64,000 nt of DNA from Promethearchaeota archaeon (GTDB lineage Archaea > Asgardarchaeota > Lokiarchaeia > Sigyniarchaeales > SOKP01), in the NCBI GenBank assembly GCA_030599585.1, contig JAUVNS010000010.1, positions 64,001-128,000 on the forward strand, given 5' to 3'. The notes beneath the pieces are model-generated. The model saw only the letters and a list, made by a program, of their open reading frames with translations, made no database searches and was not told the origin of the DNA. Position numbers and translations under genes: made by a program. Positions 18,193-39,007 of the stretch are shown in pieces. Numbering within the stretch: position 1 is the first letter of the stretch; each line of letters starts with the position of its first letter.

Positions 18193-18885
18193 GTGATGTA
18201 TTTGATATTTCAAACAGAATATTGGCCATATGTATTAGCCTTCTTTACTTGGGTTTCAGAATCTGCGGGAATTTTTGTACTAATATCTGGAATTATTGCT
18301 TTGACGTGGCTTGGTTTCGAAAGGAAACGTAGAGGATCTTTCTTTAAAAGAAAATCTGAAGCGGAAAAAACATCGGTTGTCTCCACGTTATTAAGATTAA
18401 TCTCTTATTCCAGTGTAATTGTTGGAATTCTTAATATTTGGGCAGGAGCTATGGGTCTGATCTTAGATATCCCACCAAGTTTTAAATACGGTGCGATTAC
18501 ACCTCATGCCGATCATTTTACATGTATATTCCTGATTGTTGTTGGAATCGCAATGTTTTTCAAACCAGTCAAGGATTTACCACTCTCTAGTATCCTTGGT
18601 CTTATCGCAGCATCAGCTACTGTTTTTATTTTAGCACTCCTAGTTCCAGATTCAGCAGTGGAATGGATTGCCGGTTGGATTAACCCAAAATTGTTATTAA
18701 TTATAATTTTCATTATAATAACTGCCATAGTTGCAATTGTAGCCAAATTTTTCTTAGGAGTACCCCAAGCAATCTCAAAATTCCTTTCTTGGCCTCCAGT
18801 TGCGTTTTTTATAATGATATTCGGTTTTGTTCAAGGAATTTTACTTTGGGGTTTCGGGATAAGCGTATTCATGAATATACTTTAA
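18193..18885 (+). CDS. multi-pass membrane protein
   Basis: About 6 hydrophobic segments; T-rich tract after the stop. Confidence 0.7.
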   Translation: MMYLIFQTEYWPYVLAFFTWVSESAGIFVLISGIIALTWLGFERKRRGSFFKRKSEAEKTSVVSTLLRLISYSSVIVGILNIWAGAMGLILDIPPSFKYGAITPHADHFTCIFLIVVGIAMFFKPVKDLPLSSILGLIAASATVFILALLVPDSAVEWIAGWINPKLLLIIIFIIITAIVAIVAKFFLGVPQAISKFLSWPPVAFFIMIFGFVQGILLWGFGISVFMNIL

Positions 18886-18924
18886 ATCTCTTCTTTTTTT
18901 ATTTTTATTTCTGCAATTGTTACA

Positions 18925-19725
18925 TTATATATAATCTGATAATTTCTTCTGTTGAGTGAAGTCTTTAAAGGGTAGATTTAATCTCTTCTTTAGCAGCTGT
19001 ACAGAGGTAGGGGCATTTCCTTGGAAATGATTGTTAACGATAATAAAAATTTCATGAATATTAGGAAATTCTTTGAGAGCTTTAATCTCATTAACTAAGT
19101 TGGTTAAATTTTCTTTTTGGTCTCTTTGAATTCTATTAAAGACAGTTAACTCGCGATCACCAATTAGGCGAATATAATATGAATTTTGTCTTGCCAGATA
19201 GTACGCTTTAATTCCAGGCATGTATGTTGTCCCCAAGATAACTGTCGAACTTTCTATTACTTTATGTAGCAAATCTTCATTAAACCAGGAATTATCGCGT
19301 AATTCAATAACATACTTATTCTCAATAGGGAGTTCACTTATTAGATATTTTAGTTGGTGGAAGTGCTTTTCATTGTACTTAAACCATGGAGGAAACTGTA
19401 ACAAGTAAGCAAAAATCTTATCTTTTAATGGAGATAGTCGATAAAAAAATTGAGAGATTGAATCCTCTATGTTAGCATCTTTGAATTTATGAGTAATCTC
19501 TTGCCAGACTTTAACTGTAAATTTAAAATCCTCGGGAACTTGGTCACTCCAATTTTGAACTACTGAAAAATTAGGAAGACTGTAGAATGTTGTGTTAATT
19601 TCAATTATATTGAAATATTTCGTATAGAAACCAAGTCTATTGTGTGATTCAAGCGATTTAGGATAAAATGGTCCTATCCAATCTTTATAATCCCATCCTG
19701 CGCATCCAATATATATTCTAGCCAT
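18925..19725 (-). CDS. DUF72 (YecE-like) TIM-barrel protein
   Basis: IG.AGW.Y.DW.G.FYP, EIN.TFY, LLQFPP.F, ELR..SW, NNH. Confidence 0.9.
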   Translation of the reverse strand: MARIYIGCAGWDYKDWIGPFYPKSLESHNRLGFYTKYFNIIEINTTFYSLPNFSVVQNWSDQVPEDFKFTVKVWQEITHKFKDANIEDSISQFFYRLSPLKDKIFAYLLQFPPWFKYNEKHFHQLKYLISELPIENKYVIELRDNSWFNEDLLHKVIESSTVILGTTYMPGIKAYYLARQNSYYIRLIGDRELTVFNRIQRDQKENLTNLVNEIKALKEFPNIHEIFIIVNNHFQGNAPTSVQLLKKRLNLPFKDFTQQKKLSDYI

Positions 19726-24133: not shown

Positions 24134-24748
24134 ATGACGGACTATATTGAAGATCCCTATATTGGATCAGAATATGAGGATATATTTAACGATTGGTATG
24201 AAATTGAGGGCGCAAGAAAAATACAGCAGCTTTCACGACAACTCCGAACTTTTTTCAATTATAAGACTGAAGTTATAAGATATCGATTTCGACCCAATCC
24301 AAGTCTTGCCAAAAAAGATATAACTACTATATTATATCCCCAAAAACAAGAAATTGAATCATTAACTCGTGATTTCATAAGCTTGTTAAGAAAAATTAAG
24401 AAAAATGGACTATCACTTGAGCAAGGGATTCAATCTTTATTTTTTGACAGTTGTAAATCTCCTTTGAATATACTCTCAGAAATTACTAAGAAGCTATCCA
24501 TGTTACTTCATTATTTTTCAGAAGTAAATCTTCATAATCATCCAAGATTTCTCAAATTTATAGTCGTATTAGCACAAAACATATTTTTGGTAAAAAAGTG
24601 CTTGAATGCACAATTTAGTGATTTTTATGGGGAACTTGAAATAAATTATAATGGTTTAGAAGGGGAACTAGAGTTATTATTAGAAAACACACCAAGTGTG
24701 AAGATTAAAATACCAAAAAAACAACTTGAGGAGAGAATAACTTCATGA
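24134..24748 (+). CDS. hypothetical helical protein translationally coupled to the next gene
   Basis: ATGA stop/start overlap at 24745-24748. Confidence 0.7.
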   Translation: MTDYIEDPYIGSEYEDIFNDWYEIEGARKIQQLSRQLRTFFNYKTEVIRYRFRPNPSLAKKDITTILYPQKQEIESLTRDFISLLRKIKKNGLSLEQGIQSLFFDSCKSPLNILSEITKKLSMLLHYFSEVNLHNHPRFLKFIVVLAQNIFLVKKCLNAQFSDFYGELEINYNGLEGELELLLENTPSVKIKIPKKQLEERITS

Positions 24749-27384
24749 AGGTATATACCAGCGTATTAAGAAAATCCGTGGGAGAGGATCGAGTAGCAAT
24801 TTGCCCAATTTTTGGATGTCAGTTCATGATACGAGTTAAACCTCTTAAATTTAGGTTCCTAGGTTTTGGAAAGCATCCTAAATGCAAGAAACATCGCATC
24901 CCTTTAGTCTATGTTGATGAAAGGATCGGTGATTTCGTGGATGCTGCCTTGGCGTGTTTTTTTGATAAAGCAGGACTCCCACCAAGTGAATTACTCGAGG
25001 ACATAAAATCAAAATTCCCCGATGAAGTTACCTCATTTGTAGAAGGATGGGTGTATTGCATTACGGTTGGAAGGGGATCGCCCATAGTTTCACGTTACAT
25101 GGATGCGATTTCAAATGCTTATCTCAAGCAATTGACTAAGAAACAGATTAAGGCACTTAAAAAAGGAGATGATTCTAAACCAAATCTCGTAAATAAAACA
25201 ATTAAGAATGGAATGGATGAAATTACAATCCAATATACAAGGATACTTAAGCATTTAAGGGCTCATTCTGAGGTCCTCACTGAACATCAAAAACTTCAAG
25301 CACTGTCTAAAAAACTCCAAAATTATTTGAAAGATTGGCAAAAAGGTGTATTAAAACATAATGAGATCATAAATTCACCAGAAAATAAGCACGAAATGGC
25401 TTTAGAAGAAATCAAGAGTAATTACGATCAAATCCTAAACATCGGAACATGCCGTTGTCTTCTTGGATTGAATCCTGAAAGTAAAGAAATCAAGAAAGCT
25501 AAAATAACTGCATTTGATCGATTTTCTTCTTATCACGAATTTTATAATGAGGGATTAACCATGAAATTTACAAAATCTGATATTAAAAGACAAGAAAAAC
25601 AAAGCGAAGATATAAGAGTTTTGAATAAAGACAAACAAAAACACAACAAAAAAAAGCTTTACAACGATAATAAAAATGAAAATCTTGATACTAAGTTGAT
25701 AAAGAGCTTAATAAATTTAATTTATGAGTGTGAGTGTGAGTTTGTGGAGTTTGAGAAATCCTCTACAAGTAAGCTTAACCTTAATATCACAGGAGGAATA
25801 AGTCTTCGCCGTTTTAAAAAACGCATTGTCGCATCTGAAATTTCTAAAATTCTAGGTATTAGTTTAGATACAGCAAAGAGATGGTCGCATGAACTTGAAT
25901 TGTCAAGAAATAGCCCTATTAAAATGGATATTCATAGAACTACTTTCAAAAAAATGTGTGAACACATAGAAATTTTCTCAATTCATAGTAAGATTTATAA
26001 TTCTTTTTTAGAAGTATTATCCGATTACCGCAAAAGAAAATACGCAACTGATTTTCGGGATGAGTTAGTAACAATATTTAACAAATATATTAAAGGAGGA
26101 GGAGGAAGATCTTGGCTTTCTAAAATACTCGGAAAAAGTCGTGCTTATATTGATGATTTAGAAATAAGAAGAGGGAATAGTGGAAAAGAGGGGCCTGAAC
26201 ATTATGCAAAATATTTCAATTTACTTACTAATATTCATTTGGTTAAAAAAGGGAATTTAGAATTTAAAGAAAGGTTTAAAATTAGAGATCTTAAAGCAGA
26301 AAGTCATAATTGTATTTTTAGAGAAATGAAAAAGCGAGAAATGATCAAAGAGTTATGTGAATCTCGTTATTCTAAAAGAATGGTTAATCTCAGCAATAAA
26401 GAATTATTCGATATTGTCGTTAGTTCTCAATTAGCATTTACTAAGATGGAAAGAGGAAAAGGGGGTCAGAATGTTGATTATATTTTTAAATATACCGATC
26501 TAAGTAGGAAAATTTCCCTTACAAAATCCAGAGATTTTTTCACAGGTAAGTTTAGGAATGGATTCCCTTTGGCTAAAGCTGAAGGTCGTAGATTGATAAA
26601 TGAATTAAGAAAAGGGTTTTTTATTGCTCCTAAAGCATGTCATGATGTTATATATAAGATTAAAACACATATTAGTAATCCACGTTGGAGAACCTATGAA
26701 AAGCATTTTAACGATTTAAGGGGTATTCAACGTAAAGAACTTTTAGATTTAAGCTTAGGATTAAATATTTTTGATGAAACATTTCTAAAAGATGCCTGTC
26801 CTTTTGTAACCAAAGACGGACATATTATTGATGGAACCTATGTATTATACTTAACACGCCATCATCTTGATGAAGATCAGAAATATTACTTAATTTTTGA
26901 TTATATTGATAATGATTTTATATTTAAAATCATTCTTCTTGCTTCAAAGTCTCATTGGAAGGTTCATGGGAATAAAAAAGATTATAATAGAAAAAAGGAA
27001 TTATTAAATGCGCGAATGAAGCATCTTTATAAACTACTTCAATACTCATATATTCCTAATAAAGCTTATTCTAAAATATTTAAATCTGAGTTTAATAACA
27101 AAACCGAAATAATTGATGGTCAAGACGTTAGAATTTGGAGCGATTTTTCAGAAATAATCATAGATAATTGGATTGAAAGATGGCAAGCACGCAAAACCTT
27201 GTCAGATAAAGAGTTTTATGAGATATATTATCCTAATTTTTATAGAGAACATTATGAACCACTTCTAAGAGATATGAAGTTATTTAAAAACAAGGCTAAT
27301 AACTGTGAGCGACCTGAATTTTGGTATTGGTATTTTACACACTATTTAAAAAAAAATATCTATCCTTCAATAAATCCACAGTAA
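24745..27384 (+). CDS. 879-aa protein: N-terminal Zn-finger/helical region, HTH-like segments, C-terminal HNH-like motif
   Basis: CPxxGC...CxxH; ASEISKILGISLDTAKRW (HTH-like); RHHLDED...ILLASKSHWKVH (HNH-like). Confidence 0.55.
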   Translation: MKVYTSVLRKSVGEDRVAICPIFGCQFMIRVKPLKFRFLGFGKHPKCKKHRIPLVYVDERIGDFVDAALACFFDKAGLPPSELLEDIKSKFPDEVTSFVEGWVYCITVGRGSPIVSRYMDAISNAYLKQLTKKQIKALKKGDDSKPNLVNKTIKNGMDEITIQYTRILKHLRAHSEVLTEHQKLQALSKKLQNYLKDWQKGVLKHNEIINSPENKHEMALEEIKSNYDQILNIGTCRCLLGLNPESKEIKKAKITAFDRFSSYHEFYNEGLTMKFTKSDIKRQEKQSEDIRVLNKDKQKHNKKKLYNDNKNENLDTKLIKSLINLIYECECEFVEFEKSSTSKLNLNITGGISLRRFKKRIVASEISKILGISLDTAKRWSHELELSRNSPIKMDIHRTTFKKMCEHIEIFSIHSKIYNSFLEVLSDYRKRKYATDFRDELVTIFNKYIKGGGGRSWLSKILGKSRAYIDDLEIRRGNSGKEGPEHYAKYFNLLTNIHLVKKGNLEFKERFKIRDLKAESHNCIFREMKKREMIKELCESRYSKRMVNLSNKELFDIVVSSQLAFTKMERGKGGQNVDYIFKYTDLSRKISLTKSRDFFTGKFRNGFPLAKAEGRRLINELRKGFFIAPKACHDVIYKIKTHISNPRWRTYEKHFNDLRGIQRKELLDLSLGLNIFDETFLKDACPFVTKDGHIIDGTYVLYLTRHHLDEDQKYYLIFDYIDNDFIFKIILLASKSHWKVHGNKKDYNRKKELLNARMKHLYKLLQYSYIPNKAYSKIFKSEFNNKTEIIDGQDVRIWSDFSEIIIDNWIERWQARKTLSDKEFYEIYYPNFYREHYEPLLRDMKLFKNKANNCERPEFWYWYFTHYLKKNIYPSINPQ

Positions 27385-29226: not shown

Positions 29227-31155
29227 ATGATTCTAAAAAAAATTCTTTTGCAGTCTTATAGAAATTTTAAAAAAACAGAGATTGTATTTAAAGATAATAT
29301 ACTTACAATAGTTGGTCCAAATGACAGTGGAAAATCTAATTTATTGCAAGCAATTTATTATTTAATAAATCCAAAACTACTCCTAGATGAAGATATTTGT
29401 TATTTCTCAACCACATTTACTGATAATAAAATTCCAAGCATTATTTATCATCTTGATCTTTCAATTTTAAAACTAAAATCTGAAATTAAACCTAAAATAC
29501 TTAAAATAAAATTAGAAAATAAAGAATTAAATCCAATAAATAAAATAGTTAAACTTCAATATGATATTCGGATTATTAATGATAAAAATTTTTCATTTAA
29601 AAAAATTCCTGAGAAAGAAATTGTTAATAATTACTATCGATACAAAAGTTCTCGATATTCAACCTTAAGAGATAGCTGGGAATCAAATAAGAGCATTTTT
29701 TTAGAAGAAGTTGATTCAGTTGATGCTGGGAAATTATGTCAAGCGTTAGAAGAAAATGGCTTAAAATATACTAAACTTGAAAATCATGCTGATGTTACAA
29801 GAATTATTTTTTCTCAAATTTTGAAGGAAGTTTCTGTGATTTTCTGGGAATATAGAATGGAGAATATGAAAATAAAAACAGAATATTCTATCAAAAAATT
29901 AAAGAAGAATCCTGATAGTGAACCCCTTTTAAATATTCTTTTTAAAAAAATGGGCATAAATCTTCAACAATTTTTTAATTATGAAGAAGACCGTAAGAAC
30001 AATATAATAGCTTCATTAAACCAATTAATTTCCGATCTAATAGGGTCGAATTGGACTCAAAATAATTTAGAATTTCGATTTCAAATTTTTCCTAACAACA
30101 CTTTACGTTTTAATGTTTTTGAGAATGGAAAAATTATTGAACTAAAAAAACATGGAGATGGATTTAAATGGTTCTTCTTATTTCTTCTAGATTTCTCTGA
30201 AGAATTTGGTTCTAAATATGAAAATAAAATCATTTTATTAGATGAACCAGGTAACTTTCTGCATCCTGGGGCACAACGCTTATTGTTAAAACAATTTGAA
30301 AAATTAGCGAGAAATAATCAGATAATCTATACAACTCATTCACCCTTTATGCTAAATCGAAATTATCCTAAACGTTTAATTTTTATTGATAGAGAAAATG
30401 ATGAAACGATAGTAAATTACACTAAGAATAATGTAACATTTGATGATGTATTATTGTCATCAACACTTGGTTTTACGTTTACTAATATCTCAAGGTGGGG
30501 TGATATTATTGTTTTTGTTGAGGGGTTAACTGACCAAATACTTTTAGAACATTTGATTTTAAAATATGCCGAATACTTTAAAGAAGAAATATTAGATTTA
30601 AATCTTTATTCGCTTATTAATATGGGAGGATTAATGAATTTAGATAATTTTTTAACCTTAGCTATTACTACAAATTCAAAATTTATTGCCTTCATTGATA
30701 ATGATAAGGAATCCAAGGAAAAGACTAAAAAATATTCTCAATCTATAAATAAAAGAGCTAAAATTCATAAAAATACGATCAATCATATTATTTTTTTAGA
30801 TGAAGAAAAGACCATTGAAGATTATGTCCCAATCAGTCTTTTAAATCAAGCAGTCAAAAACCTTTCAGATTCTAAGGATATTGTTTTTCGAAATTGCTTA
30901 CAAGATTATAAATTTAAAGATGAATTAAGGAAACCTCAAATTAAAGATTTAATCACGCAATTTAAGGATTTTATAACTAAAAACGATGATAAAATTAATG
31001 ATTTCTCAAAAGGAAATTATACTAAAAGTAATTTTAAATTCTTATTATTCACAAAAATAATTGAATTAATAGATAATAGTAATATTAATTTATTTCAAAA
31101 TTTAATTAAAAAAATTAAAGAAATTCAATTGAATTATGAAAAACTTTATGAATAA
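29227..31155 (+). CDS. OLD-family ATP-dependent nuclease (ABC ATPase + TOPRIM)
   Basis: SYRNF, Walker A GPNDSGKS, signature GDG, Walker B LLDEP..LHP, TTHSP, TOPRIM VEGLTD and DND; markedly AT-rich. Confidence 0.85.
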   Translation: MILKKILLQSYRNFKKTEIVFKDNILTIVGPNDSGKSNLLQAIYYLINPKLLLDEDICYFSTTFTDNKIPSIIYHLDLSILKLKSEIKPKILKIKLENKELNPINKIVKLQYDIRIINDKNFSFKKIPEKEIVNNYYRYKSSRYSTLRDSWESNKSIFLEEVDSVDAGKLCQALEENGLKYTKLENHADVTRIIFSQILKEVSVIFWEYRMENMKIKTEYSIKKLKKNPDSEPLLNILFKKMGINLQQFFNYEEDRKNNIIASLNQLISDLIGSNWTQNNLEFRFQIFPNNTLRFNVFENGKIIELKKHGDGFKWFFLFLLDFSEEFGSKYENKIILLDEPGNFLHPGAQRLLLKQFEKLARNNQIIYTTHSPFMLNRNYPKRLIFIDRENDETIVNYTKNNVTFDDVLLSSTLGFTFTNISRWGDIIVFVEGLTDQILLEHLILKYAEYFKEEILDLNLYSLINMGGLMNLDNFLTLAITTNSKFIAFIDNDKESKEKTKKYSQSINKRAKIHKNTINHIIFLDEEKTIEDYVPISLLNQAVKNLSDSKDIVFRNCLQDYKFKDELRKPQIKDLITQFKDFITKNDDKINDFSKGNYTKSNFKFLLFTKIIELIDNSNINLFQNLIKKIKEIQLNYEKLYE

Positions 31156-32264: not shown

Positions 32265-33539
32265 ATGACATTGAAAGTTTTATTCATTCGAGTATTTAAT
32301 AAATTGAAAGAATTCTGGAATGAGAGGATCTTCCGGTATGCTATCCTAGTTCAACTATCTTACGTTCTTTTGTCAATAATTTTATTTTTCTTATTTTTAT
32401 ACCAAAAAAATGATTTCGTAATTTTTTATGAATCAGGGAAGATTTTCCTCACAGATATTGAAAATCTGTATAATCAAGCTAATTATCTTTGGGATTTTAG
32501 GTATTTTCCTTTATCTGCATTAATTTTTATTCCGTTTTCTTTTTTGGATTTTGGTCTAGCCTTTATTGCTTTTAATACTCTCAATTTCATCTTGAACATT
32601 CTGATTTCTTTGATGATGTATAAAATCATAAAAGCAATTCGAGGTCAAGATCACGAAAATAACGATAAACGAATAATTCTATACATTAGCTTATATTTAA
32701 TGGGAGTACCTCATATCCTTAATTATATTTATGGCCAAATTAATTTATTTATTACATTTTCAATCTTAGCTTCGTTATTGATTTTTCTATTCTACAAAAA
32801 GATAAAATGGCAACTACTTGGAAGCATTATATTAGGAATCAGTATCATAATCAAGCCAACTTCATTCTTTCTAATTCCGTTTTTATTAGTAATACATTTT
32901 GATATGAGTACGAAAAAGTTGAAAATCGACTTTTCAACTAGTGTAGTAAGGTTGGTTGGAGTTTTAATACCCGTCCTATTGAACTTTGTACTTTTCGCTA
33001 TTTACCCTAAACTATGGAATGATTTTCTTTCCACTAACTTTACTGGAAGTAATCCTCTTGCGTTAAATTTTTCTTTCAGCCTGACAAAACTAGTGACGAA
33101 TTTTTGTTATTTCTTCAATATACCATTCAATCAATTAATCGTATTGATAGTCTTAGTTGGATTAGTTGGTGGATTAGGATTTTTTTCTTACATATTGAGA
33201 AGGCGAGATACGGATTATATTTTATATGGTTATACTATTGGAATGATTATCATGCTCCTTACATATTTTGATAGTTGGGACCACCACTTGTTAAATCTAA
33301 CTCCCTTGCTGATTATAACAATCTTTAATCTTCCAAGAAGAGCGAAATTGATAGAATACATAAAACCAAGTTTCTTTTTCTTCAATTTTTTCGATATTAT
33401 TTTTGTAGGTGTATGGTTTTTAACTTATCCCTTGTTTCCCTATAATTTTGTCGGTACCTTTTTTCTATTCGTGTTATTATATAGCCTAACGAGGTATTTT
33501 CTGGTTAAAAAACTAAAAACTGATGAGGGAAAACTTTGA
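32265..33539 (+). CDS. GT87/DUF2029-like GT-C membrane glycosyltransferase, paralog 1
   Basis: DF..FY, FRY.PLSA, GQIN, IKP, N.S and SWDHH motifs with many TM helices. Confidence 0.75.
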   Translation: MTLKVLFIRVFNKLKEFWNERIFRYAILVQLSYVLLSIILFFLFLYQKNDFVIFYESGKIFLTDIENLYNQANYLWDFRYFPLSALIFIPFSFLDFGLAFIAFNTLNFILNILISLMMYKIIKAIRGQDHENNDKRIILYISLYLMGVPHILNYIYGQINLFITFSILASLLIFLFYKKIKWQLLGSIILGISIIIKPTSFFLIPFLLVIHFDMSTKKLKIDFSTSVVRLVGVLIPVLLNFVLFAIYPKLWNDFLSTNFTGSNPLALNFSFSLTKLVTNFCYFFNIPFNQLIVLIVLVGLVGGLGFFSYILRRRDTDYILYGYTIGMIIMLLTYFDSWDHHLLNLTPLLIITIFNLPRRAKLIEYIKPSFFFFNFFDIIFVGVWFLTYPLFPYNFVGTFFLFVLLYSLTRYFLVKKLKTDEGKL

Positions 33540-34282
33540 TGAAAGTTAAAAAAGGAGGCATCTATACCAGTATAGCGCTCCTATTTCTTTTCATATTAGG
33601 ATTCTCATCAACGGTACTTGCTAACGATTATCAAATTGGAATTAAAACTAACGATGAGTTAATTTGGAATTGTCATTTATGTGATGATAACAAAATGGAT
33701 GAGTTGTTTGGAGAATTTTGGAACGATGCGGGAATGTTTGAAAACTTAAGTACAAACAGCAGAATGAAATGGCGTGTAAATATGGTGGAAGAAAACTCTA
33801 CAGCACTATCAGCTTTAATTAGTATATGGATGTGGGGGGTTGAGGATAATTGGGGTACGCAAGATAACAGCTCTAAATTCTCGTATCTAAAAAATCCAAT
33901 TCTATATCCTAGTGGCTTCAATTTTACAAATAGATTCCCGTTTATTCCTTTTTGGCTTCCTGTTCCTGTTGGCGAATATTTAGGGGAAGTACCTTTAGGT
34001 GAGATTTACGACGTTGATAATCGGGTATTACCAACTTTAAATGTACGAATTACTAAAGACTCCATCCATCCTAGCGAACCTACGGAAACGGTTTATTTTA
34101 TCGCAGTCTATAATACTAATGGGATTTTGAATTCTTTTAAGTTATATACAAGCGGTAATGTAGTCGTTGTTGACATTTCATTGGAAAGTTTACCGATTTT
34201 TGCTATCGCTTCAACGATAGGTTTAGTATTAGCATTTGTTTGCTCCATAGTTTTATATATAAAGAAAAAACGGATCACTTAA
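33536..34282 (+). CDS. secreted/surface protein with signal peptide and C-terminal TM anchor
   Basis: Basic-hydrophobic N-terminus ending VLA; several N-x-S/T sequons; C-terminal TM followed by KKKR. Confidence 0.7.
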   Translation: MMKVKKGGIYTSIALLFLFILGFSSTVLANDYQIGIKTNDELIWNCHLCDDNKMDELFGEFWNDAGMFENLSTNSRMKWRVNMVEENSTALSALISIWMWGVEDNWGTQDNSSKFSYLKNPILYPSGFNFTNRFPFIPFWLPVPVGEYLGEVPLGEIYDVDNRVLPTLNVRITKDSIHPSEPTETVYFIAVYNTNGILNSFKLYTSGNVVVVDISLESLPIFAIASTIGLVLAFVCSIVLYIKKKRIT

Positions 34283-34312
34283 TATCCAATTAAATTTTTT
34301 ACGATAAGTCCC

Positions 34313-35581
34313 ATGAATTATAAAGTAATATACACCAACTCTAAGAAACGGTTAGCAGAACTCTGGAATATAAAGTTTTTTAGATACGCAATTTTACTTC
34401 ATTCCTTTTACTTTTTTTTGTCAATAATAGTAACGCTTTTCTTTTTAAGAACGCAGAGTGATTTTTATGTTTATTATAAAGTTGGAGAAATTTATGTAAA
34501 CAATCCAAATAATCTCTATAACCCTGCCTATTATGTTGATATATGGCCTTTTAGGTATTTACCTCTATCAGCCTTACTTTTTGTTCCTTATTATTTATTG
34601 GGGTTTAATTTAGGATTTATTATTTTCAATTTTATCAATTTTATCCTAAATATTCTGATCTCTGTAATCCTATACAAAGTCATCATATTGGTTAGAGGGG
34701 ATGACCACGAAAGAGAAGATAAAAGAATTATATTATATATTTGTTTTTATTTAATCGGTTTACCTCAGGTTTTTAATTATATTTTAGGACAAATCAATTT
34801 ATATGTAACTCTATTAATATTATTATCCTTATTCATTTTTCTTAAATTTAAAAAAACCAAATATCAATTATTGGCAAGTTTTATAGTAGGAATAAGTATT
34901 ATAATCAAACCCACCGCAATATTTATGATACCCTTCATAATTGTTCTCAATTACAACTTCGAGAAAAAGAGAATTTCATTTGATCTTAAACTTAGCTTTT
35001 TAAGGCTATTCGGAGTTCTTTTACCTCTGTCAGTAAATGTTGTAATGTTTCTCATTTATCCTGATTTACTTACTGGGTTTTTAGGCACGAATTTTACTGG
35101 TTCTGAAACCGTGCTTTTAAACCATTCTTTTAGCATTACCAAAATCATTTCAAACATGTTATTATTTATAGGCGTTCCATCGAACGAATTAAATGTTTTA
35201 CCCATCTTTATTAGCGTTTTGCTCGTCTTAGGGTGTTTCGGATTTATATTTTATATTTTTAGAAGGTTTAATAAAAATAATTTGATATACGGATACACTT
35301 TTGGAATGTTAATAATGTTCCTTGCTTATTTTGACTCTTGGGATCACCACCTACTCAACCTAATACCGCTTTTAATTATTATGTTATTTAATTTACCGCG
35401 AAGTTCAGAATTAACAAGAAAATACATAAAACCTAGTTTTTTCTTTCTAAGCTTTTTAGGTCTAGTTTTTACCGGAATTTTTTGGTTTACCCAACTATTC
35501 TTTCCATTTAATTTTGCCTCTACAATCTTCTTAATTCTAATTTTTATCGGAGTCAGCCGATATTGTATACTAAAAAATTAA
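34313..35581 (+). CDS. GT87/DUF2029-like GT-C membrane glycosyltransferase, paralog 2
   Basis: Colinear paralog of 32265-33539 with the same motifs. Confidence 0.75.
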   Translation: MNYKVIYTNSKKRLAELWNIKFFRYAILLHSFYFFLSIIVTLFFLRTQSDFYVYYKVGEIYVNNPNNLYNPAYYVDIWPFRYLPLSALLFVPYYLLGFNLGFIIFNFINFILNILISVILYKVIILVRGDDHEREDKRIILYICFYLIGLPQVFNYILGQINLYVTLLILLSLFIFLKFKKTKYQLLASFIVGISIIIKPTAIFMIPFIIVLNYNFEKKRISFDLKLSFLRLFGVLLPLSVNVVMFLIYPDLLTGFLGTNFTGSETVLLNHSFSITKIISNMLLFIGVPSNELNVLPIFISVLLVLGCFGFIFYIFRRFNKNNLIYGYTFGMLIMFLAYFDSWDHHLLNLIPLLIIMLFNLPRSSELTRKYIKPSFFFLSFLGLVFTGIFWFTQLFFPFNFASTIFLILIFIGVSRYCILKN

Positions 35582-35755
35582 TGGAAATTTGATTTAGGTC
35601 AATTTTTCACCTAATTGAACGGCTTTATATTCCCACTTCAATTAACACTAATTCAATACATAATGATTAAAGTTAAATAATTTCTATTCTACACTAACTT
35701 GAAAATTTGAATATATAATATAATAAATAAATCCAAAAGACACATTAGAAATACC

Positions 35756-36466
35756 ATGGTCCAAGAATATATCATCATTTTTATGCCCGCCTTTTTGTTA
35801 GGAATCTTACATACTGCTATTCCATGTGAAGATAAAGCTATCTTCTTTTTTTGGTCTTTCGGAATAGCTAAAACTCCTACTAAAAGCATTTATATCTTAG
35901 CGCTTTATGGATTGGGTTTAATCTGTGCAAATATGCTCATTGCATCTGTAACAGTCTTGATTACCCAAGTCCCAAGATTTGTCTTTCCGACCTTCACACC
36001 AGATCCGTATGTCATTAACTTTTTCGGCGCTTTTACGTCTATGATCGCGGGAATCATTATCTTATTCTTTTTGACAAGACGAGACTATACGCCACATTCG
36101 AAGTATTCAAAGGAAATTTCAACTTTAGATTGGGAATTAAAGAAGACTCCATTTTTCTTTGGTATTTTAGCTGGGTTTGCTCCTTGTATATTTGAGTTAA
36201 TTATATATTCTCAATCATTTCAGTTCTCATTAGGATATGGCTTTATCGAGGGGTTATTAGTTGTTTTTTACTTTTCGCTTGGGACCTTCGTGGGGCTTTT
36301 TCCACTTGCATTAGCGAAATATGGAACCTCGCAAATGGTCAAGCCAAATATTAAAAGAAGGAAAGTGATTTTCTACATGATGATTTTAATAATCATAGCT
36401 TTCAATAGTGTGGTAATGATTTTATCGTTTTTACGAATATCTGTATTTCCTATAGAAAGTTTATAG
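35756..36466 (+). CDS. membrane protein, NicO/UreH/DsbD_2-like metal transporter superfamily
   Basis: G.LH...PC motif in TM1, G..PC in TM4 and F.LGT in TM5. Confidence 0.5.
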   Translation: MVQEYIIIFMPAFLLGILHTAIPCEDKAIFFFWSFGIAKTPTKSIYILALYGLGLICANMLIASVTVLITQVPRFVFPTFTPDPYVINFFGAFTSMIAGIIILFFLTRRDYTPHSKYSKEISTLDWELKKTPFFFGILAGFAPCIFELIIYSQSFQFSLGYGFIEGLLVVFYFSLGTFVGLFPLALAKYGTSQMVKPNIKRRKVIFYMMILIIIAFNSVVMILSFLRISVFPIESL

Positions 36467-36634: not shown

Positions 36635-39007
36635 ATGGTTGAATGCAAATTTTGTGAATCTCAAAACATTTCTTTTACTTGTGAGAAATGCAAGTCAAGT
36701 TTTTGCATTAACCATATGGCTACAACAGAAAGTTGGCTTTGTAAAAAACATGCGTTACATTATTCTAAGGCGAGTGCCACTGAGAAATTTTATAAATGTA
36801 CTGTTATTGAAAATAGTAAATGTCCAGAATGCGATTCTCTCTTAAGATTAGAAAGATTATCATCTGGTCATTATTATTTAGAGTGCATTGATGAAGCATG
36901 CAGTTGGAACTCTTACTTAAAATCTCCTGGCTTATTTTTTCCTACTAAAGAACAGTTAGCTAGAGAAGCTACGAAATATAACTTAATTAAAGGATATAGG
37001 TTAAATTTATGTCGTAGGTCTCTTAAAAAAATAGTTGGAAAAGAAATTTGTCCAAACTGTTTCATAGAATTACTCAAGAGAGCCACAATTACTAACTTCT
37101 CCACTATTATCGAATCATTCAATGTTACTGCTCAACAAATGATTAAATTAATTAATCAATACATTGAAGAGGAACGAATCTATGGTATAATTGATCAGAA
37201 GAACCAGATTTTTTACTACATATCCTACGAAATCCGTGAGAAAATTTTATCGAAAATTCAAAACGAGGGCATTTTGAAAGTAGCAGATCTGGGAGAAATG
37301 CTCGATATGAGTTCAGACGCGGCTATAAAAGTCATTTACAAGTTGATTAGCCAATTTCAAATTAAGGGCTCCTTTTCACAAACGAAACAATTTTATTACT
37401 CCCAAAAATATATAATGGACCAATTAATAAAAGAGATTAATAAAAAGGGAAGGGTATCGTTAGATAAACTTGCGAAAATATTTGATGTCCCAGGAGAATT
37501 GACAAAATCTTTTTGCGTCAATCTAATGAGAACTAACGCAGTAAACGGATTTTTTGCCGATCGTGGTAATGAAATTATTACATCTGACCAAATCTATAAA
37601 GAAATTAAAGCATATTCAAAAGAAGTAGGTTTATTTGAGCTCTCTAAGCTTGCTATAAAATTAAAAATAGCGATAGAATTAGCAAGAAAAAGTCTACATG
37701 AACTCATTAAATCTGGCAAAGTTAAAGGCCTTTTTACACAACGCAGAGAATTTATGACTCGTAAATACCTTGAAACGAAAATAAAAGAAATCGCTCGAGC
37801 CTATAGAACGATGCCATTAAGAGAACTTTCAAATCGATTGGGTGTAACTGAATCCAGTATAGAAGAGAATCTTGCTCAACTTATTGGAAGCGGAGATATC
37901 GATGGTTTTATTGATTTAGGAAAGCGAATGTTTACGGCATACTCGGTACCACGCACTTCATCTAAAACTTCGCGTCCAAAACAGAAAAAATCAATTTCTA
38001 TCGATGAGGGAAGCATAGAAATTGTAAGGGATTATGATTTCGAAGGTGGACAAGTACATATGAAAATAGCCGTGCGGAATAAAAGCGATATGGCTATAAA
38101 TAATGTTAAAGTTTTATTGGATGCGCCATCTAACTTCAAAGTAAAACAACCTTTGATTAGTGTTCCCGTAATTGAAGCTAATAATAGTAGGGGCGTTGAT
38201 TTTTATCTTGAGCCCAAAACTTGCGGTACATCAAATATTGGCGGAACTGTGATATTTAAAGACGCATCAGGTGAAAAACACACTAAACACATAAGAAAAC
38301 AAGAAGTTGCTATAAAATGTCCTCTTGTTTGTACCTCAATGAGCACTATAGAGGATTGCCAAGTCGCGATACAAACCTTAGGAAACGATGCTCGGGCATT
38401 TTTAATTGCTGATTTAGACCCTCGTTTAGCATATAGGGCTGCGATAAGAACTCTAAAAAACTTTGATACTAGCGCTGTAACATCCCACGAGGGTTCTGAC
38501 GCAAAGGGAAACTACGAAGCTGAAGCATGGTTCTGTTCTGAAGCAAAAACTACTGGCGGAAGAATTATTACACGTATCTATGTATCTGAAACAAGTCAGT
38601 CATTAGAAGTAAGGGTATGGTGTGGAAACGCAGGAATGCTTACGGGATTCTTAGCAAAAATTATAGAAATACTGTTTGAGCAGATAAACATAATCAGAAA
38701 AATCAAATCAGAGGAAAGAGAGAAAACAATAGATGTCATGGCAATTACACAGAACTTAGCTGAAATCAGCGATTATTGTATGCTTAGATGGAAGGCACAG
38801 AATATAAGAAACAAGTTACATGACACATTTGTCCGTTTAAGGAAAATTATAGGAGATAATGAGGCTATTTTAGGTAGAGTTGAATATTGGCTAACTCAAT
38901 TGAATAAATATGGCAAAGACGACAAAATCAGCGATGAAGATGCCGAAAAATTAGTGAATGATGTAGAAAAAATCAAAAATGTCGTTTCTCGAGCAATAAA
39001 ACTGTGA
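36635..39007 (+). CDS. 790-aa multidomain protein: Zn fingers, five winged-helix (PCI/DDRGK/UFL1-like) repeats, Ig-like plus alpha/beta C-terminal module
   Basis: Several N-terminal CxxC/CxxH pairs; repeats ending IYGIIDQ, IKGSFSQ, VNGFFADRG, VKGLFTQ, IDGFIDL; beta-rich KIAVRNKS..I.NV segment. Confidence 0.7.
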   Translation: MVECKFCESQNISFTCEKCKSSFCINHMATTESWLCKKHALHYSKASATEKFYKCTVIENSKCPECDSLLRLERLSSGHYYLECIDEACSWNSYLKSPGLFFPTKEQLAREATKYNLIKGYRLNLCRRSLKKIVGKEICPNCFIELLKRATITNFSTIIESFNVTAQQMIKLINQYIEEERIYGIIDQKNQIFYYISYEIREKILSKIQNEGILKVADLGEMLDMSSDAAIKVIYKLISQFQIKGSFSQTKQFYYSQKYIMDQLIKEINKKGRVSLDKLAKIFDVPGELTKSFCVNLMRTNAVNGFFADRGNEIITSDQIYKEIKAYSKEVGLFELSKLAIKLKIAIELARKSLHELIKSGKVKGLFTQRREFMTRKYLETKIKEIARAYRTMPLRELSNRLGVTESSIEENLAQLIGSGDIDGFIDLGKRMFTAYSVPRTSSKTSRPKQKKSISIDEGSIEIVRDYDFEGGQVHMKIAVRNKSDMAINNVKVLLDAPSNFKVKQPLISVPVIEANNSRGVDFYLEPKTCGTSNIGGTVIFKDASGEKHTKHIRKQEVAIKCPLVCTSMSTIEDCQVAIQTLGNDARAFLIADLDPRLAYRAAIRTLKNFDTSAVTSHEGSDAKGNYEAEAWFCSEAKTTGGRIITRIYVSETSQSLEVRVWCGNAGMLTGFLAKIIEILFEQINIIRKIKSEEREKTIDVMAITQNLAEISDYCMLRWKAQNIRNKLHDTFVRLRKIIGDNEAILGRVEYWLTQLNKYGKDDKISDEDAEKLVNDVEKIKNVVSRAIKL

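Follow-up and report, generated by a model that had tools for sequence, protein, structure and literature searches.

UFL1 and DDRGK1, the two subunits of the UFM1 ligase (E3) of eukaryotes, have been traced to Asgard archaea (Picchianti et al., 2023), and fusions of Vps28/Vps23 with an adaptin/COPI C-terminal domain and E3 UFM1-protein ligase 1 have been described and predicted to act in ubiquitin-dependent membrane remodelling (Liu et al., 2020/21). Similarly, proteins that join the C-terminal domain (CTD) of Vps28 (hereafter Vps28-C), an adaptin appendage and helix-turn-helix (HTH)/PCI domains have been proposed to be analogues of ESCRT-0 (ESCRT, endosomal sorting complex that is required for transport) that bind ESCRT-II directly (Makarova et al., 2024, PMC10936438). 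Here we describe such a protein, 790 amino acids (aa) long and encoded by an open, intact reading frame (ORF) at 36635-39007 (+) of the window, i.e., the whole stretch of 64,000 nucleotides (nt) of contig JAUVNS010000010.1 that was analysed (~31% G+C). The source is a Lokiarchaeial genome of 4.85 Mb, estimated to be 100% complete. From the N- to the C-terminus, the protein carries a zinc module, five PCI-type winged helices (WH), a basic linker, a two-part appendage (beta-sandwich plus platform), a long helix and finally a Vps28-C-like bundle. On balance, we lean towards reading the gene as a Lokiarchaeial member of the Asgard cluster of orthologous genes (asCOG) cog.003822 that encodes a multidomain, predicted cytosolic docking scaffold.

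The conserved features of this protein are far beyond chance. On a single conserved chain it unites four building blocks of eukaryotic cells, namely zinc fingers, the scaffold of the UFM1 ligase, an ear as in coat adaptors and a tail as in ESCRT-I, and it does so in the archaea that are most closely related to eukaryotes. As such, the architecture is already known. The cluster cog.003822 is listed in Lokiarchaeum GC14_75 with an exactly matching domain description (Makarova et al., 2024, supplement, PMC10936438), and both in the GC14_75 table (PMC10936438) and in the window a 417-nt NikR-like gene and then a 363-nt parvulin gene lie downstream. Judged by this common gene order, the gene studied here is orthologous to the GC14_75 member. 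Since the architecture was noted in publications of 2020-2024, nothing of a new kind comes with the present copy; the one point to add to the published description is the colinearity of the winged-helix array with the split DDRGK1/UFL1 pair. Homologues carry the NCBI names 'PCI domain-containing' and 'DUF2042 domain-containing', and some are called 'Lrp/ArsR family transcriptional regulator'.

The winged-helix arm and the DDRGK1/UFL1 boundary

An earlier reading of the DNA made from its letters only (hereafter the sequence-only reading) had picked out five ~60-aa repeats, each ending in G-x-(I/F). These are real: the AlphaFold2 (AF2) model of the array, built on an alignment of 29 relatives (predicted local distance difference test score, pLDDT, 89.3), shows five winged helices at residues 140-197, 198-256, 257-316, 317-375 and 376-437, each with the order H1-strand-H2-H3-strand-strand and each closed by the G-x-(I/F) wing motif (IYGII, IKGSF, VNGFF, VKGLF and IDGFI, respectively). 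Pairwise identity from repeat to repeat is 11-24%. The same reading had likened the repeats to the winged helices of DDRGK1/UFL1 and of PCI proteins at aa ~150-435, and matches of exactly these types cover residues ~140-437. Above the Pfam cutoffs, PCI (PF01399) matches four stretches (9e-23), DDRGK matches at 1e-14 and E3_UFM1_ligase (PF09743) at 1.9e-16 (61 bits against a cutoff of 23.2). The best Foldseek match of the array is the human DDRGK1-UFL1 chimera 8b9x (2.6e-13, target TM 0.68-0.70), followed by 60S-bound UFL1 (8qfc_B, 8ohd_A and 9gy4_E; 1e-11 to 1e-12); the first unrelated match, SelB, appears at 8e-6, about seven orders of magnitude weaker than 8b9x. VIA-align places four domains on 8b9x as one rigid body (Z 16.3, root mean square deviation (rmsd) 3.3 Å, 239/255 residues), whereas single winged helices reach a Z of 10.2 at most. 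Since the four domains superpose at once and single ones score far lower, the two arrays have their inter-domain geometry in common, beyond the fold itself. In sequence order, WH1 to WH4 are colinear with the DDRGK1 winged helix, the composite DDRGK1/UFL1 winged helix, UFL1 WH1 and UFL1 WH2, and WH5 aligns to the UFL1 winged helix that comes after UFL1 WH2.

Within this array, the point at which the eukaryotic scaffold is divided can be located. When the family profile was compared with PDB sequences, the chimera 8b9x matched over profile positions 136-352 in one unbroken alignment (1.3e-22). The match to native DDRGK1 (1e-9, residues ~207-298 covered) stops at profile position 219. The one to native UFL1 (2e-12, residues 26-251 of 794) begins at profile position 220, which corresponds to UFL1 residue 26. 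Comparison of the alignments gives the residue number as the profile position + 4, so that this end and this start put the boundary at D224|M225, in the AF2 loop between WH2 helices 216-223 and 227-241. In eukaryotes, the corresponding winged helix is built from the C-terminus of DDRGK1 and the N-terminus of UFL1 (PMC10702826; PMC10937380). Because the DDRGK1 and UFL1 matches abut within an intact WH2, the archaeal protein is the unsplit form, and the simplest reading of the abutment is that the DDRGK1/UFL1 pair would have originated by fission. On this view, the one-chain array of the archaea would show the state in which eukaryotic DDRGK1 and UFL1 had not yet been split, a proposition whose chances we judge to be evenly balanced. 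If it holds, the UFM1 E3 scaffold came about when an Asgard protein was split within a domain, and its ancestral setting would have been a scaffold equipped with an ear of the adaptin type and an ESCRT tail rather than UFM1 conjugation. The exact abutment within one winged helix thus sharpens the question of whether the eukaryotic pair descends from a single chain. A literature search, which cannot prove the idea new, found no stated fission origin of DDRGK1/UFL1.

Zinc module, appendage and Vps28-C-like tail

Ahead of the array, the N-terminal Cys/His clusters and further CxxC pairs of the sequence-only reading resolve into 16 conserved ligand positions (C4/C7, C16/C19, C24/H27, C36/H39, C55, C63/C66, C84, C89, C126 and C139/C142). 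The ligands over aa 1-90 are kept in 20-22 of the 22 aligned relatives and those over aa 126-142 in 23-25 of 24-27, and most of the 16 are invariant among 113 full-length homologues. Such a number would suffice for, and is consistent with, about four Zn sites. The first eight ligands form a cross-brace unit, CxxC-x8-CxxC-x4-CxxH-x8-CxxH, which is AN1/HIT/B-box-like only under the Pfam thresholds, and the eight later conserved Cys (C55, C63, C66, C84, C89, C126, C139 and C142) are consistent with two more putative sites. As to the type of the module, its AN1, HIT, B-box, IBR and zinc-ribbon Pfam matches all remain under cutoff.

The low-complexity basic linker that had been noted behind the array is confirmed as a variable stretch of low model confidence at residues 438-460, with a pLDDT <50 at 440-450 in the WH model and ~50 where the C-terminal model starts. 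It is the only poorly conserved part of the protein (31% identity vs 71-89% in the folded domains among 112 homologues, with the long helix, at 89%, and the ear highest), and the models suggest that it is probably disordered and acts as a hinge ahead of the ear. Beyond it, the AF2 model of the C-terminal half (alignment of 38 diverse relatives, pLDDT 94.2) consists of a beta-sandwich (461-560), an alpha/beta platform (565-663), a 50-residue helix (666-716) and three more helices. For residues ~461-690, Foldseek ranks the COPI beta/gamma, AP-2 beta2 and AP-2 alpha appendages best (1.8e-10 to 1e-8) and BBS9, BBS2 and BBS7 next. For the platform alone, VIA-align finds the AP-4 beta4 ear 2mj7 at Z 13.9 over 119/141 residues (rmsd 2.7 Å). 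When the sandwich and platform are fitted together, the AP-2 beta2 ear reaches Z 13.2 over 195 residues, the alpha ear Z 12.9 over 203, BBS9 Z 12.8 over 238 and gamma-COP Z 11.2 over 207; the rmsd over both subdomains is high (12-14 Å) because the sandwich and the platform are oriented differently. On its own, the sandwich matches the GGA2 GAE domain (Z 11.1) and the gamma2-adaptin ear (Z 10.1). W662 in the platform is invariant among homologues. At the level of sequence, the appendage stays under the gathering score of Pfam Alpha_adaptinC2 (PF02883; 15 bits vs a cutoff of 27.6, E 0.031), and the profile search of PDB sequences retrieved no adaptins. The beta-rich and alpha/beta domains had been read as the layout of adaptin/COPI ears and of the BBS2/7/9 C-termini at aa ~455-700; this is borne out, with a true platform present, and the opposite picture, i.e., matches only to generic winged HTH regulators and CARDB/S-layer Ig folds with no platform, was not found.

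The terminal helices are likewise present, and they form a Vps28-C-like bundle, an identity that the sequence-only reading had missed. Pfam VPS28 (PF03997) matches with 27.2 bits against a cutoff of 24.5 (4e-6; hidden Markov model (HMM) positions 87-182), the last ~95 residues superpose in VIA-align on the yeast Vps28 CTD 2j9u_A (Z 12.5, rmsd 2.1 Å, 93/94 residues), and the family profile matches the Xenopus Vps28 CTD 2j9w at 1.5e-3. The genome also encodes a separate canonical Vps28 (contig 28, 25589-26050), with which this family profile gave no match in hhalign, and a Vps22 (contig 22).

A further model, NCBIfam Sel_Asgard (NF045535, 'putative selenocysteine system protein'), matches aa 594-788 of the protein over all 195 model positions (5e-8). 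The true Sel_Asgard member of the genome (217 bits) is encoded on contig 28 at 18504-19085 (locus L005:8418-9104, +), immediately behind SepSecS, with Vps28 6.5 kb away. As the model matches the platform together with the helical tail, members of this 'selenocysteine' family may be platform/Vps28-C-like modules that stand on their own. In a pairwise BLASTP, aa 560-790 and the genome's Sel_Asgard protein gave no match; with both this comparison and the hhalign comparison empty, the links to Sel_Asgard and to the genome's own Vps28 rest only on HMM and structure matches.

Docking scaffold or ligase, ribosome factor or regulator

With these domains, the appendage could, like that of adaptins, serve as a hub for interactions with peptide motifs, the Vps28-C bundle could dock the protein onto ESCRT-II while bypassing core ESCRT-I, and the WH arm and zinc module could bind a client, either a large complex or ubiquitin-type cargo. 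The whole protein would then take part in protein sorting or the remodelling of membranes as an adaptor of the ESCRT-0 kind, which is the function proposed for the class by Makarova et al. (2024, PMC10936438), and its scaffold would predate, or act without, UFC1/UFM1 chemistry. Yeast two-hybrid links of Loki ESCRT-I (Vps28 and/or Vps23) with Vps22 have been reported (PMC9192718). Complex prediction for the Vps22-like protein of the genome with the tail (aa 684-790) gave no model (score 0.00), which speaks neither for nor against binding.

Several observations weigh against this proposal. A docking-scaffold function tied to ESCRT-type sorting is the most likely one, and it is read from domain homology alone. 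The structural match to Vps28-C ties with unrelated four-helix bundles (CheA P1, Z 12.5), and the sequence support for the Vps28-C assignment is modest; by VIA-align, the sandwich subdomain taken alone also resembles many generic Ig/MG folds. Furthermore, the ESCRT genes are located away from the gene, and no ESCRT or ubiquitin gene adjoins it. Genomes of the family keep the order of the neighbouring genes, but those of the sister family do not and have housekeeping genes around the scaffold gene instead; gene order therefore reflects common descent and gives no functional clue. Finally, structure-level Ufm1-like proteins were reported in nine Asgard clades in 2026 (PMC12962969), which bears on whether the scaffold serves a ligase.

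The sequence-only reading had proposed an E3-like scaffold fused to a coat-type interaction module. Its homology to the scaffold and its coat ear stand, whereas the E2-binding helix, UFC1 and a Pfam-detectable UFM1 that would go with an E3 were not found. UFC1 (PF08694) has no match at E <= 0.1 in the genome, Ufm1 (PF03671) has no Pfam match there, and among 301 Asgard genomes the Ufm1 Pfam model gives nothing above cutoff, its sub-threshold hits being fragments within large ORFs only. For ligase activity, UFL1 needs its N-terminal helix (residues 1-21), which binds UFC1 (PMC10702826); this helix has no equivalent here, since the UFL1 match runs from residue 26 and the site is taken by a 3-residue loop, aa 224-226, within WH2. 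With UFC1, a Pfam-detectable UFM1 and the UFC1-binding helix not found, the protein probably does not act as a UFM1 ligase of the eukaryotic kind; it probably serves as an ESCRT-linked docking scaffold instead. In line with this, UFM1, UFC1, C53 and UFSP2 are reported to be exclusive to eukaryotes, and a UFM1-independent role has been suggested for the Asgard homologues (Picchianti et al., 2023). The structure-level Ufm1-like proteins would escape the Pfam model, so that the Pfam negatives alone leave a UFM1-like partner possible. Together with the homology to both E3 subunits, these proteins speak for a genuine primitive UFM1-type E3 scaffold that acts with divergent Asgard Ufm1-like partners; set against the missing UFC1 and Ufm1 matches, the missing helix and the reported restriction of UFM1, UFC1, C53 and UFSP2 to eukaryotes, such a scaffold appears very improbable.

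The suggested UFM1-independent function of the Asgard homologues (Picchianti et al., 2023) could also be exerted at the ribosome, with the WH arm clamping the large subunit and the ear and Vps28-C tail recruiting sorting or quality-control machinery in an ancestral role that needs no UFM1. Of all known relatives of the 60S-bound part of UFL1/DDRGK1, the array is the closest (Foldseek 1e-11 to 1e-12), and PMC10937380 describes contacts of UFL1 WH1/WH2 with RPL13 and other 60S proteins. However, the UFL1 CTD and CDK5RAP3, to which much of the ribosome binding is due, are without counterpart here, and no ribosomal or translocon gene lies in the neighbourhood of the gene; a ribosome-associated factor is thus rather unlikely. 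A DNA-binding transcription regulator made of winged HTH domains would fit the automatic name 'Lrp/ArsR family transcriptional regulator' of some homologues, the weak HTH_DeoR, HTH_11 and AsnC-type Pfam matches near or under their cutoffs, and the superposition of single WH domains on many bacterial regulators (Z 8-10). By far the strongest matches are nonetheless those to the PCI/UFL1/DDRGK1 scaffold winged helices, with four domains as one rigid body, the protein lacks an effector-binding domain, and regulators are not built with an adaptin ear and a Vps28-C bundle fused on, all of which makes a regulator the least credible of these alternatives.

Distribution, gene neighbourhood and comparison with known systems

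The full-length gene occurs in 63 of the 68 genomes of its family and, at 41-45% identity, in 6 of 7 genomes of a sister family. Diverged forms exist within the same class, and elsewhere in the phylum it is the ear module alone that matches. In a protein library clustered at 50%, this module, with or without the tail, is carried by hundreds of Asgard proteins that range from 250 to 2300 aa and differ in their N-terminal parts; the named members come from Loki-, Hel- and Asgardarchaeia metagenome-assembled genomes (MAGs). The genome itself encodes two more ear-bearing ORFs without the full architecture (profile E 1e-16 and 3e-12; Table 1). Among distant relatives, P0142 and P0143 (from Asgardarchaeia-type MAGs), P0157 and P0173 carry the WH array and/or the ear after extracellular-looking regions (DUF4350/ABC_transp_aux, Big_13, FG-GAP and NPCBM_assoc), which suggests, at the level of predicted domains, that membrane-spanning variants of the scaffold exist.

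Table 1. Positions of the parts of the 790-aa protein in the window, of its neighbours and of further ear-bearing ORFs on other contigs.
Feature	Position	Strand	Basis or remark
N-terminal zinc module, aa 1-139	36635..37051	+	Cys/His ligands, conservation, AF2 pLDDT 85-95
Five tandem PCI-type winged helices, aa 140-437	37052..37945	+	Pfam, AF2, Foldseek, VIA-align, profile vs PDB
Codons D224 + M225, helix 2/helix 3 loop of WH2	37304..37309	+	Profile vs PDB, AF2 helices
Basic variable linker, aa 438-460	37946..38014	+	Low pLDDT, 31% identity
Ig-like beta-sandwich of appendage, aa 461-561	38015..38317	+	AF2 strands, GAE/ear matches
Alpha/beta platform (TBP-like) of appendage, aa 562-665	38318..38629	+	VIA-align, Foldseek, invariant residues
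Long helix aa 666-716, Vps28-C-like bundle aa ~696-788 and stop codon	38630..39007	+	Pfam VPS28, VIA-align, profile
Ear-bearing ORF, 696 aa	contig 28:111754-112407	-	
Ear-bearing ORF, 609 aa	contig 21:235380-236069	+	
879-aa ORF	24745-27384	+	No Pfam match at E <= 0.001
OLD-family nuclease	29227-31155	+	AAA_15/AAA_21 ATPase + OLD-like TOPRIM
Upstream GT87/DsbD_2-like block	32265-36466	+	
4Fe-4S dicluster protein, 368 aa	39650-40756	+	

The genes around the scaffold follow the order GT87, 248-aa protein, GT87, DsbD_2-like, scaffold, NikR-like, 4Fe-4S protein, parvulin and HD hydrolase. In the upstream block, the 248-aa protein has a C-terminal hydrophobic stretch, the second GT87 is a paralogue of the first and the DsbD_2-like product is a membrane protein; the block is syntenic with the scaffold gene in other genera of the family (loci L014 and L015). 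The 4Fe-4S gene between the NikR-like and parvulin genes is absent at the equivalent position in Lokiarchaeum GC14_75 and in family locus L015 and seems to have been inserted locally, the order being conserved otherwise. Farther upstream lie an OLD-family nuclease gene in very AT-rich DNA, of a type common in defence islands, and an 879-aa ORF (Table 1).

The eukaryotic scaffold (8b9x, 8c0d, 8qfc and 8ohd) comprises the C-terminal winged helix and a partial one of DDRGK1 (also called UFBP1) and a partial winged helix and WH1-3 of UFL1. Compared with it, the archaeal protein has the same colinear PCI-type WH array with the same inter-domain geometry, carried on a single chain instead of on two proteins that share a composite winged helix. 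The membrane anchor and UFM1-binding region of DDRGK1 and the CTD of UFL1 have no counterpart in it, and its array is flanked by zinc fingers, an ear and Vps28-C, whereas the eukaryotic scaffold stands in the context of UFC1 and CDK5RAP3. PCI proteins of the proteasome lid, CSN and eIF3 match in their WH subdomain, but the helical-repeat subdomain that precedes it in them is absent from the AF2 model. Like the ears of AP-1 to AP-4 and COPI, the appendage consists of a beta-sandwich and a TATA-binding protein (TBP)-like platform behind a flexible hinge, and like the C-termini of BBS2/7/9 it has the order GAE, platform and helical region, the BBS9 alignment extending into the helical region of the archaeal protein; in place of the alpha-solenoid trunk of the adaptors or the beta-propeller of BBS proteins, zinc fingers and the WH array lie upstream of the hinge. 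With Vps28 of ESCRT-I (2j9u and 2j9w), the protein has the C-terminal four-helix bundle in common, whereas the N-terminal core of Vps28 (the steadiness box, which assembles with Vps23) is without counterpart and the Pfam match covers the C-terminal part only. The closest described system is thus cog.003822 itself: all four of its annotated components were verified here, including the N-terminal Zn-binding domains, represented by the 16 conserved Cys/His in aa 1-142, the lineage is Lokiarchaeia in both cases, and nothing substantive differs between the GC14_75 locus and the window except the 368-aa 4Fe-4S gene inserted in the latter.

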